Shown here in pieces: positions 7,930 through 39,545 of a stretch of DNA of 64,000 bases; position 1 is the stretch's first letter, and the number at the start of each line of letters is the position of its first letter. The position numbers and the translations under genes were made by a program. The notes below the pieces were generated by a model that was not told where the DNA came from, made no database searches, and saw only the letters and a list, made by a program, of their open reading frames with translations. The DNA comes from Patescibacteria group bacterium (GTDB lineage: Bacteria; Patescibacteriota; Patescibacteriia; UBA2591; UBA6264): NCBI GenBank assembly GCA_016784145.1, contig JADHVF010000002.1:112357-176356 (forward strand), in the 5' to 3' direction.

Positions 7930-7959
7930 TTGACATTGTATTTGTAATATTGTTATAAT
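7930..7959 (+). promoter_or_regulatory. Sigma-70-type promoter for tuf (TTGACA, 18-nt spacer, extended -10 TGtTATAAT)
   Basis: TTGACA at 7930-7935 and TG-n-TATAAT at 7951-7959. An SD sequence GAGGA lies 8-12 nt before the tuf ATG. Confidence 0.5.
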
Positions 7960-8034: not shown

Positions 8035-9240
8035 ATGGCAGCTAAAGAAAAATTCGAAAGAACAAAGCCGCATTTAAATGTTGGTACAATTGGTCATGTT
8101 GACCATGGCAAAACAGCTTTAACAGCGGCAATATTAAAAGTTTTAACAGCTTCTGGAGGAAAGGCTGAAACAAGAAGTGTTGATGAAATTGACAATGCTC
8201 CTGAAGAAAGAAGTAGAGGAATTACAATTTCGTTAGCTCATGTCGAGTATGAAACAGACAAAAGACATTATGCTCACATTGATTGTCCAGGACATGCTGA
8301 CTATGTTAAAAACATGGTTACTGGTGCAGCTCAAATGGATGGAGCTATTTTGGTTATTTCAGCCACTGATGGTCCAATGCCTCAAACAAGAGAGCATATC
8401 TTGCTGGCTAGACAAGTTGGAGTACCATCTATTGTCGTGTTTTTAAACAAGACAGACCAAGTTGAAGACAAAGAGTTGATTGAACTTGTTAAAGAAGAAG
8501 TTAAAGACATTCTTAAAAAGTATGAATTTCCAGGAGATGAGACCCCTATTATTGAAGGCTCGGCTACTAAAGCAATAGAATGTGGTTGTGGAAAAACAGA
8601 TTGCGAGCATTGTGGACCAATCTTAAAATTGCTTGATTCCCTTGATTCATATATTCCAGAACCAAAAAGAGATACAGAGAAACCATTTTTAATGCCAATT
8701 GAAGATATTTTTTCAATTGAAGGCAGGGGAACAGTTGTTACTGGAAAAATTGAAAAAGGAATTGTTAAATTAAATGATGAGATTGAAATTGTAGGATTAA
8801 GACCAACAACTAAAACAATTGTTACGGGCATAGAAATGTTTAGGAAGTCATTAGAAGAAGGGTTTGCTGGAGATAATGCAGGTATTCTTTTAAGAGGAAC
8901 TAAAAAAACAGACATTGAAAGAGGGCAAGTAATTGCTAAGCCAGGGACTGTTACTCCTCATACAGAATTTGATTGTCAGGTTTATATTTTATCCAAAGAA
9001 GAAGGGGGCAGACATACCCCATTTTTGGCTGGGTATAAGCCCCAGTTTTATATTAGAACAACTGATGTTACTGGCGAAGCGTTTTTACCAGAAGGAACTG
9101 AAATGGCTATGCCAGGGGATACATTAGACCTTAAGGTTAAACTCTATAAACCAATTGCACTTGAAGAAAAGCAAAGATTTGCAATTAGAGAAGGTGGGAG
9201 AACAGTTGGAGCAGGAGTTGTAACAAAGATAACCAAGTAA
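8035..9240 (+). CDS. tuf: Translation elongation factor Tu
   Basis: [16 protein letters not shown] and NKTD GTPase motifs with full three-domain conservation. It carries an unusual Cys4 insertion in domain I (see findings). Confidence 0.97.
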
Positions 9241-9298
9241 TGTTTTGATTTAACAGTTAGAATATTAGTTTAGAAATGAATTAGTTTTTTATAATGTA

Positions 9299-9664
9299 AT
9301 GAAAAATAAAAGTAAGCAAAAAGACAAAATTGTTGCTAAAAAATTAGACAAGAAAGAATATAAACCAAAGATTCGTATCAAGGTCAAATCATATGACCAT
9401 AGAATTATAGATGAAGCAATTAAAAACATTATTGAATCTTTGAAGCATTTAGATGCTAAGATTATTGGCCCAATTTTTCTTCCAACTGAAAAAAGAAAAT
9501 ATACTGTTTTAAGGTCTTCTTTTGTTCATAAAGATTCAAGAGATCAATATGAAAAAAGAACCCACAAAAGGCTAATTGATATTATTGATTTTAACCCAAA
9601 AGTAATAGAAAAGCTGACAGGGTTAGATTTGCCTGCTGGAGTAGATATTGAAATAAAAATGTAG
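9299..9664 (+). CDS. rpsJ: 30S ribosomal protein S10 (uS10), with a roughly 20-aa Lys-rich N-terminal extension
   Basis: The core IRIKVKSYDHRIIDEAIKNI...RSSFVHKDSRDQYE...LIDIIDFNPKVIEKL matches uS10. Confidence 0.93.
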   Translation: MKNKSKQKDKIVAKKLDKKEYKPKIRIKVKSYDHRIIDEAIKNIIESLKHLDAKIIGPIFLPTEKRKYTVLRSSFVHKDSRDQYEKRTHKRLIDIIDFNPKVIEKLTGLDLPAGVDIEIKM

Positions 9665-9801
9665 TGTTTTTATAAGATAAAAAGTTTTACAAATAAAATA
9701 GTTTTTAATTAAGATTAAAAAACCGTTTTAAAAAAACGAAGTGTTGATTTTAATTACATGACTCCATTGCCAAAGATTTAAAATTAAATTAATTTTATTG
9801 C

Positions 9802-9841
9802 CCGGATTTAGCCGGTAAATTATTTGGCTGTCCGGTTTTTT
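9802..9841 (+). terminator. Terminator/attenuator-like hairpin (nested CCGGA/TCCGG and AGCC/GGCT stems followed by T6) in the rpsJ-rplC spacer
   Basis: ccggatttAGCCggtaaattatttGGCTgtccggtttttt is the only GC-rich palindrome in a 190-bp AT-rich spacer and is followed by a U-run. Confidence 0.35.
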
Positions 9842-9853
9842 AATTAGCCAGAA

Positions 9854-10477
9854 TTGTTTATGAAATTTATTCTTGGAAAAAAATTAGCCATGACTCATAT
9901 CTTTAATAAAGATAATGAAATTATTCCAGTGACGAAGATTCAATCTGGGCCATGTTTGGTTGTTCAGGTTAAATCAAAAGACAATGATGGATATAATGCA
10001 ATTCAAGTTGGATTTGAAACAAGAAAAAAAATAAACAAAGCCAGTCAAGGGCATGTTCAGGGACTTTTAAAAAAAAATGAAAATACATTTAAGTATTTAA
10101 GGGAGTTTAGAATAAATGATAGTAAATTAAAAAAAGGAGATATAATAAATGTAGATATTTTTAAGGTTGGAGACATGGTTAAGATTTTAGGAAAGACAAA
10201 AGGCAGAGGATTTCAAGGGGTTGTTAAAAGACATGGATTTCATGGCTCTCCAGCTAGTCATGGACATAAAGATCAGTTAAGAATGCCTGGATCAATTGGA
10301 GCTACTGGTCCGGCTAGAGTTTTTAAAGGAAAAAAAATGCCTGGCAGAATGGGAAATAATTTTAAAACAGTTTATGATTTAAAGATCGTTAAAATTTTTC
10401 CAAAAGAAAATATTATTCTTGTTAAAGGGTCTATTCCTGGGGCTAGAAATTCATTATTAAAAATTGTTGAAGCTTAA
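9854..10477 (+). CDS. rplC: 50S ribosomal protein L3 (uL3)
   Basis: Conserved uL3 core (GKTKGRGFQGVVKRHGF, PGSIGATGPARVFKGKKMPGRMG). The likely start is the ATG at 9860. Confidence 0.95.
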   Translation: MFMKFILGKKLAMTHIFNKDNEIIPVTKIQSGPCLVVQVKSKDNDGYNAIQVGFETRKKINKASQGHVQGLLKKNENTFKYLREFRINDSKLKKGDIINVDIFKVGDMVKILGKTKGRGFQGVVKRHGFHGSPASHGHKDQLRMPGSIGATGPARVFKGKKMPGRMGNNFKTVYDLKIVKIFPKENIILVKGSIPGARNSLLKIVEA

Positions 10478-39340: not shown

Positions 39341-39499
39341 AGAAGCAAAAAAATAAAAACATAAAAGCATTAAAAAATAAAAACAAAGCGATTAAGATAC
39401 AAAATACAATAACCAAATAATAATCAAGACATAAGATGCTCTCTTGTGTTCTGTTTCGCAGAATTTCGGCGGGCATGGCAATAATCAAGCAATAATCAA

Positions 39500-39545
39500 A
39501 ATATAAAAACCAAACAAATATTTTTTTGTTTGGTTATTGGTTATT
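39500..39545. terminator. Bidirectional rho-independent terminator between the convergent recA and Wzz-like genes
   Basis: AACCAAACAAA-tatttt-TTTGTTTGGTT: an 11-bp perfect stem flanked by an A-tract 5' and a T-rich tract 3'. Confidence 0.5.

Follow-up and report, generated by a model that had tools for sequence, protein, structure and literature searches.

This study concerns the spacer between rpsJ, the gene of ribosomal protein S10/NusE, and rplC, the gene of ribosomal protein L3, in a 64,000-nucleotide (nt) stretch of contig JADHVF010000002.1 from a Patescibacteria group bacterium. This whole stretch is called the window below. The spacer contains an upstream hairpin module, which we named M1, and a terminator-like hairpin just before rplC. 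The features of the locus are as follows.

7930-7959, + strand: consensus promoter TTGACA-18-TATAAT with an extended TG (12/12 matches), in the 168-nt gap upstream of tuf
8035-9240, + strand: tuf, upstream of rpsJ
9299-9664, + strand: rpsJ (S10/NusE), 121 amino acids (aa), identified by its open reading frame (ORF) and translation and by Pfam Ribosomal_S10 on the identical gene in related locus L081
9665-9859, + strand: rpsJ-rplC spacer, 195 nt, 24% GC
9706-9756, + strand: module M1, a hairpin upstream of the terminator-like hairpin (folding, covariation, covariance model)
9769-9780, + strand: GCCAAAGAUUUA (GCCAAA..AUUUA), candidate antiterminator or pseudoknot strand (read from the sequence)
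9770-9797, + strand: middle segment AAAGAUUUAAAAUUAAAU with a weak all-A/U hairpin (9779-9797; -1.7 kcal/mol, z = -1.5)
9802-9835, + strand: two-tier terminator-like hairpin (folding, architecture in relatives, nhmmer profile)
9836-9841, + strand: U6 tract directly 3' of the hairpin, the predicted termination point (read from the sequence)
9842-9862, + strand: link of 18 nt from the U6 tract to the rplC AUG, with a second GCCAGA copy at 9847-9852
9860 onwards, + strand: rplC (L3), 205 aa, start codon ATG at 9860, followed by rplD, rplW, rplB and the rest of the S10-spc cluster

All genes of the S10-spc cluster lie on the + strand, and the gaps between them, other than that between rpsJ and rplC, amount to a few nt; tuf and rpsJ are separated by 58 nt. 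The L3 product translated from ATG 9860 is identical to an NCBI L3 filed under 'Patescibacteria group bacterium', and the next-closest L3 is 66% identical. The long AT-rich gap reported in the initial annotation of this DNA is real, and its length was given there as 190 bp with an end at 9853 because a TTG at position 9854 lies upstream of ATG 9860 in the rplC frame. The spacer is 100% identical in four independent assemblies and therefore is no assembly artefact. By the same token, a comparison within the species is uninformative, as the four assemblies do not differ at a single spacer position. No ORF of at least 20 aa was found in the spacer on either strand, so that a small ORF or leader peptide was rejected here; it was likewise rejected in the relatives, where an AAGGAG resembling a Shine-Dalgarno sequence was seen by eye without a conserved start codon after it. 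No transfer RNA or transfer-messenger RNA was found in the whole 64 kb.

The loci of relatives were fetched by L3 similarity only. Among 78 genome loci, the rpsJ-rplC gap outside Patescibacteria and Chloroflexota ranges from -1 to about 100 nt and is mostly 15-50 nt, which bears out the earlier remark that other bacteria have short gaps here, whereas it measures 84-512 nt in Patescibacteria and the long gaps of Chloroflexota measure 167-269 nt. In a scan of metagenomes, the gap was 155-872 nt in all 69 of the 69 loci that contained both genes (L3 52-62% identical), and in four closer relatives (L3 63-65% identical) it was 178-227 nt. Conservation in related genomes had been named in the initial annotation as a check of its own proposal, and this length, as well as the hairpin counts given below, came out in its favor.

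The terminator-like hairpin consists of two tiers with 11 bp in total. In the outer stem CCGGA (9802-9806) pairs with UCCGG (9831-9835), and in the inner stem AGCCGG (9810-9815) pairs with UUGGCU (9824-9829), including two G·U pairs; the loop has 8 nt, the internal loop is UUU and G9830 is bulged. The nested palindrome followed by T6 is exactly as first described, and it folds with -16.2 kcal/mol (z = -2.7), a stability reached by 1 of 200 shuffled sequences. Two features expected of an intrinsic terminator are present, namely a stable GC-containing stem-loop and, immediately after it on the transcribed strand, a U-tract of 5 nt or more; the minus strand has no T-run after the stem. The resemblance to a canonical intrinsic terminator thus extends to the GC-rich stem-loop and to the U6 immediately after it. 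Unlike the canonical form, the stem has an internal loop, a bulge and G·U pairs that are conserved in sequence, and it stands inside an operon, 18 nt before a start codon, and not at an operon end. As just 18 nt lie between the U6 tract and the AUG, rplC must be transcribed through the hairpin and can be expressed by read-through only, the link being too short to hold a promoter. In a stricter scan of the whole 64 kb, non-coding DNA contained a single other terminator-like site besides this compact GC-rich hairpin with its T-run. That site, at a convergent gene junction, is an AT-rich hairpin with a T-run at 39493-39543, in the 276-nt gap between the two genes.

A hairpin (dG ≤ -8) with a T-run within the last 120 nt was present in 46 of 73 distinct spacers, compared to 27 of 219 dinucleotide shuffles (about 12%) and 14 of 73 spacers read on the reverse strand. 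Hence, a hairpin with a U-run just upstream of rplC is enriched about five-fold over controls. In the relatives, too, T-runs follow the hairpins, which adjoin rplC and not the rpsJ stop codon and usually end 4-60 nt before the rplC AUG. Across the spacers these hairpins sort into sequence-related types. In the type found in the window, an internal loop separates an outer stem around CCGG/CCGG from an inner stem GCCGG/YUGGC, which frequently has a GAAA cap. This type recurs in nine relatives (L097, L106, L156, L087, L089, L001, L167, L168 and, more loosely, L169), in which 129 of 131 stem positions are paired. MAFFT alignments of the hairpins were inconsistent in register, and for this reason the stems were aligned by hand and the pairs counted by a script. 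Sequence conservation of the inner helix extends to its two G·U pairs, and the innermost outer pair is A-U, U-A or G-C. The type is kept among relatives whose L3 proteins are only 52-65% identical, and such conservation of sequence, G·U pairs included, is something that a plain terminator would not need. For an nhmmer search, a profile was made of six relatives without the window, and positions 9801-9842 were its top match in the whole window on both strands (E = 0.011; the next match had E = 3.3). Being the top match of a profile that excluded it, the hairpin is therefore a conserved element and no generic terminator. In the same profile search it occurred once in 64 kb.

This hairpin is not the sole meaningful element of the spacer: the initial annotation missed M1, which lies upstream of it. 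M1 has an outer stem of 13 bp (9706-9718 paired with 9744-9756), a symmetric internal loop with AAAAC (9719-9723, of which AAC at 9721-9723 is invariant) opposite AAGUG (9739-9743), and an inner stem of 6 bp, in which CGUUUU (9724-9729) pairs with AAAACG (9733-9738) around an AAA loop. It folds with -11.8 kcal/mol (z = -3.9), and none of 200 shuffled sequences was as stable; for the leader as a whole (9705-9841) the corresponding values are -29.7 kcal/mol and z = -3.2. Many relatives share the design [outer stem]-YAAC-[hairpin]-AAGUG-[outer stem], in which AAC and AAGU are invariant and both stems vary. In an alignment of 15 sequences, 89% of the cells were paired as opposed to 60% in shuffles and 31-47% in slid controls, and 44 cells had changed on both sides where 13.7 were expected. 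The sequences had been chosen partly by the pairing of their inner stem, so that the figures for the inner helix are biased; the outer stem played no part in the choice, and it was 92% paired with compensatory changes at 4 of 5 pairs.

A covariance model of M1, R1, was run over 347 kb on both strands and gave 22 hits, every one of them in the rpsJ-rplC spacer on the sense strand. The hits include sequences that were not in the seed, and the 64-kb window contains only one. In the alignment of the R1 hits, double-sided changes occur at all 10 of 10 pairs. A further count for M1 gave 90% paired cells, compared to 61% in shuffles and 35-49% in slid controls. R1 also matches two closer relatives, which brings the number of M1 hits to 24, all of them in the rpsJ-rplC spacer on the + strand. 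A reading of the window's element as a repeat or mobile element was rejected, as M1 and the hairpin are each single-copy in 64 kb. Two features that are characteristic of ribosomal protein (r-protein) leaders are thus present, a consistent sense-strand site immediately upstream of r-protein genes and a structure supported by covariation, that of M1. That the spacer is a conserved structured cis-acting RNA can be stated with high confidence.

The idea that the palindrome is a functionless accident of an AT-rich spacer finds support in a simple, generic terminator consensus scan, which performed at chance level against shuffled sequence, with 7 sites in 15 kb compared to 6.1 expected. The comparative data already contradict this idea: position, architecture and sequence of the hairpin are conserved in relatives and M1 covaries, which makes chance a scarcely credible explanation.

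Two further forms of the 5' module were found in other spacers. M1b has the design [outer]-(A/U)AAG-[hairpin]-(A/U)AAC-[outer] and is present in 17 of 83 spacers compared to 17 of 830 shuffles; its stems covary, and it reads as a circular permutation of the M1 internal loop. M1' has the form AAGUGAAC-[hairpin]-GUUAUCG. The permuted variants retain the AAC and AAG loop strands, and we infer that M1, M1b and M1' are one motif. The loci are as follows.

M1b: L085, L109, L119-L121, L130, L131, L136, L137, L139, L141, L144, L153, L155, L162
M1': L001, L089, L091, L115, L167, L168

We also searched for similarity to known RNA families. At gathering thresholds, Rfam 15 gave 0 matches in the whole 64-kb window and none in 20 related loci. 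At E ≤ 10, region 9250-9950 gave nothing but noise (eukaryotic small nucleolar RNA and long non-coding RNA models), and at E ≤ 0.5 nothing was found in nine related loci. The comparison with r-protein leader families that had been suggested along with the hairpin therefore ended with no Rfam match, and no known riboswitch class was matched in these searches. In the literature we found no report of an r-protein leader of the Candidate Phyla Radiation (CPR) or of an rplC attenuator. The element appears to be absent from RNA databases and to occur throughout the sampled Patescibacteria, a group of ultra-small bacteria.

A riboswitch-type attenuator, which would sense a small molecule or ion, e.g. 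a growth-rate signal, in place of a protein, would likewise combine a conserved structured 5' domain with a terminator after it. However, no pocket is evident in M1, a simple internal loop between two helices with a length of about 50 nt, its occurrence in permuted forms is typical of protein-binding mimics of ribosomal RNA (rRNA), no known class was matched and the gene context is purely ribosomal. A riboswitch is for these reasons improbable, and we rate it a little below the small RNA discussed further on.

In many leaders, an A/U-rich or Shine-Dalgarno-like segment separates the 5' module from the hairpin; its version in the window is AAAGAUUUAAAAUU. By eye, the middle segment of the window is similar to AAAGGUUUAAAAUUCAAA in L097 and to the motif GAGGUUUAAAAUU / AAGGAGAUUAA seen in other relatives. 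Positions 9769-9780 are complementary to 9816-9828 (UAAAU..UUUGGC), that is, to the hairpin loop and the 3' strand of the inner stem, and at equivalent places the relatives have GCCAGAUU / AAUCUGGC or AACCAGAUU / AAUCUGGUU pairs. An antiterminator in the leader is thus possible, and at some loci the alternative pairing could coexist with the hairpin as a pseudoknot. The GCCAGA at 9847-9852 can pair with UUUGGC (9823-9828) in the same way as GCCAAA at 9769-9774, and L110 has the same UUAGCCAGAA before its AUG; this second copy may be a translational component. No Shine-Dalgarno sequence was found in the 18-nt link before the rplC AUG. We also considered a BoxA/NusB-S10 site, as some relatives have 'AACAAUUU' before the hairpin, which is reminiscent of boxA in its 3' half. 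This reading was rejected, since the other half, GCUCUUU, is missing and the motif does not occur in the window.

From which promoter the leader is transcribed appears to differ between the window and its relatives. In the spacers of relatives, near-consensus sigma-70 promoters were found in 17 of 73 cases compared to 57 of 730 shuffles. They are mostly perfect TTGACA with 17-nt spacing, and nearly all of them precede the hairpin. Directly after rpsJ, several relatives have an additional terminator. The resulting order, rpsJ, (terminator), promoter, structured leader with a terminal terminator and rplC, is that of an attenuator. Two promoter candidates in the spacer of the window were rejected, TTGAAA-17-TATAAG for want of the final T and TTTACA-18-TAAGAT for cutting into M1. 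The promoter upstream of tuf appears to be the likeliest source of transcripts that enter the leader here and, as it is perfect and the spacer has no convincing promoter, the leader of the window is probably an internal segment of a tuf-rpsJ-rplC transcript.

This arrangement lends itself to another explanation, akin to the decoupling of S10 considered in the initial annotation, in which the hairpin is a constitutive, leaky intrinsic terminator. It would end most tuf-rpsJ transcripts, fix a lower level of rplC and the genes downstream of it and so decouple them from EF-Tu and S10/NusE, with M1 as an unrelated stability or processing element. The hairpin with its U6 is canonical, the tuf promoter upstream is strong, no other terminator occurs through the S10-spc cluster and the signal for an antiterminator is weak. 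In Archaea, rpsJ is kept with tuf and a separate operon starts at rplC, which we count toward the same explanation. On the other hand, the hairpin lies 137 nt away from the rpsJ stop codon, at the opposite end of the spacer. Many relatives have a promoter upstream of it, which would make a constitutive terminator wasteful, and specific recognition is indicated by the invariant loop of M1 and by the G·U pairs conserved in sequence. Consequently, we regard a leaky terminator as unlikely, albeit as the most serious of the alternatives.

The promoter, structured RNA of about 130-200 nt and terminator seen in relatives would also suit an independent small RNA, which would act in trans or as a protein sponge while rplC is expressed from leak-through or another promoter. 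The hairpin lies 90-160 nt before rplC in several relatives, and in L147 a promoter with 11/12 matches follows it. In the window and most relatives, though, the distance from the U-run to the AUG is only 4-60 nt, the element was found solely directly upstream of rplC on the sense strand and the spacer of the window has no clear promoter. The probability of an independent small RNA is low in our opinion, about half that of a leaky terminator.

The explanation toward which we lean is that the element works as a regulated attenuator with an r-protein ligand, which would control rplC-rplD and the genes downstream. A regulatory RNA or attenuator is favored over a chance palindrome because the spacer is long in all sampled relatives, the hairpin with its U-run is enriched and the two-tier hairpin is conserved. 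An analogous regulatory RNA had been among the possibilities named in the initial annotation, and this part of its proposal gains support from the comparative conservation; the likeness to L4-mediated attenuation is one of architecture only, with no homology to the E. coli leader.

In this scheme, the leader RNA would act in cis on the rplC-rplD-rplW-rplB... gene string. M1, with its invariant internal loop of AAC opposite AAGUG, would be the 5' sensor hairpin, and the leader would end in the two-tier GC hairpin and U6, 18 nt before the rplC start. RNA polymerase would arrive from the tuf promoter, or from a promoter in the spacer as in many relatives, and would either read through into rplC or stop at the U-tract, transcription attenuation being the most likely mechanism. 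The choice would probably be set by a ribosomal protein encoded downstream that binds the leader when it is in excess over free rRNA. L4 is the candidate ligand by precedent, and L3, L22, L23, L29 and L24 are also possible. While the anatomy, the conservation, the covariation of M1 and the exclusive location of the element were described above as observed, termination, regulation and the existence and identity of the protein ligand are what we infer.

A number of results weigh against a regulated attenuator. The hairpin stems vary so little that the support from covariation is thin for this part of the leader. Shuffle-controlled energies of the RNAduplex pairing between the upstream segment and the hairpin had a mean z of -0.66 (p = 5e-4, 60 loci), a weak enrichment, and the duplex of the window alone was not significant (z = -0.9). 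No convincing promoter was found in the spacer of the window. In some relatives more than 100 nt follow the hairpin, in one case (L147) with a promoter there, which fits an independent small RNA equally well. Finally, in a search for mimicry of rRNA, R1 had no match at E ≤ 10 in E. coli 23S and 16S rRNA.

After this search, a possible mimicry of rRNA by M1, suggested by a likeness to the 23S H24 hairpin, was retained as a lead only. The M1 core AAC-stem-AAGUG resembles E. coli nt 482-500, AACCCCGGCGAGGGGAGUG (AAC-CCC..GGGG-AGUG), for which R1 gives no match in E. coli 23S. The bacterial consensus of H24 is GaACCcc..ggGGAGUGAAA, and in the Rfam large-subunit consensus the flanks of this hairpin are junction strands and form no helix. 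H24 is located at the tunnel exit near uL22, uL23, uL24 and uL29 (PMC9307626, PMC11723945, PMC12274283), and the primary uL4/uL24 site is H18-H20 (PMC6426284).

Among known leaders, that of E. coli for L4 is the nearest functional analogue of the proposed attenuator. In the E. coli S10 leader, L4 causes termination, which is L4- and NusA-dependent and occurs at a U-run just before the first cistron, and it also represses translation (PMC3616713). That leader has five hairpins (HA-HE), and its family is restricted to Gammaproteobacteria (PMC3616713). The two systems are alike in having a structured leader of about 150-190 nt, which ends in a hairpin with a U-run, a few tens of nt upstream of the cistron that is the first in the S10 string to be regulated. 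Moreover, an upstream hairpin is required in E. coli besides the terminator hairpin (PMC3616713), and here M1 lies upstream. In contrast, the E. coli leader precedes rpsJ and that of the window comes after rpsJ and before rplC, so that S10/NusE, as we propose, would escape control. Sequence and fold differ as well, with no similarity or HD/HE homology detected by the Rfam searches. Because of these differences in position, sequence and fold, the element of the window is no member of the E. coli L4 leader family.

A candidate L4 leader, whose ligand was assigned by precedent only, precedes rplC-rplD-rplW-rplB in Archaeoglobi (Eckert & Weinberg 2020, PMC7247131). It shares the place directly upstream of rplC with the element of the window; unlike the latter it is archaeal and different in structure, and its covariance model had no match at E ≤ 10 in 9250-9950. 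We know of no terminator role for this archaeal motif. In B. subtilis, L20 attenuates infC: binding of the r-protein to a leader of some 200 nt favors an intrinsic terminator (PMC1865079). This is the mechanism class proposed here, r-protein-dependent attenuation, and it thus exists beyond E. coli. The infC-rpmI-rplT leader differs in operon, protein and fold, rRNA mimicry has been demonstrated for it, and Rfam L20_leader was not matched in our searches. By these comparisons, the element would be a new class of r-protein leader, analogous and not homologous to the E. coli L4 leader and linked to L4 by analogy only.

How feedback controls the S10 gene string is understood for E. coli and its near relatives only, and little is known about the balancing of these at least 11 ribosomal proteins in other phyla. 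Patescibacteria have tiny genomes with few recognizable regulators and cannot be cultured alone, and a delimited RNA element is a rare testable handle on their regulation. The permuted versions of the internal loop with a terminator as read-out would be a compact system for studying the rewiring of RNA-protein recognition. If the ligand is an early-assembly protein, the leader would report the imitated rRNA site. The element could also join RNA family databases.

In a bolder version, which we put forward tentatively and consider doubtful as a whole, this would be the first r-protein feedback element for the CPR, an old and lineage-wide rplC leader. Its AAC/AAG(UG) core, present in at least three topologies (M1, permuted M1b and M1'), may imitate 23S H24, and together with the terminator it would control L3 onward and leave S10/NusE with EF-Tu as in Archaea. 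The rpsJ/rplC junction may even be a general regulatory node, because Chloroflexota have a conserved motif of their own in this position; if so, it went unnoticed because model bacteria lack it.

The long rpsJ-rplC spacers of Chloroflexota (167-269 nt) have no terminator. Their conserved motif is GGGAU-GAUG-[stem/AGCCC loop/stem]-GACA-GUCCC (GGGAUGAUG...ACAGUCCC) and ends 17-27 nt before the rplC start codon. Its inner stem covaries and it has no Rfam match, and it is probably another undescribed rplC leader. A second conserved hairpin, 'GUAAGAGCC', is found upstream of it. The first motif occurs at the following positions.

L005:2429-2474, L027:550-594, L038:565-610, L039:1566-1611, L047:2431-2476
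L048:655-699, L063:1664-1708, L064:1659-1704, L068:694-739

Three minor observations concern the lineage and its genes. Arrays of short, partly palindromic repeats (TACGAAT..., CACAAAT..., ACGCAGATT...) stand before or after the leader in L009, L088, L097, L108, L116, L126, L130, L146 and L153 and account for much of the variation in spacer length; they resemble small repeats or mobile elements, and arrays of operators are another possibility. The S10 protein of the window has a lysine-rich N-terminal extension of about 20 aa (MKNKSKQKDKIVAKKLDKKEYKPK, encoded at 9299-9370), and S10 of the relatives is 119-132 aa long. Many L3 homologues of the lineage (protein hits P0011-P0118) are recorded at 240-300 aa compared to about 205 aa, most likely as their start codons were called too far upstream, within the long spacer, and the element most likely accounts for this frequent over-extension of L3 by gene callers.
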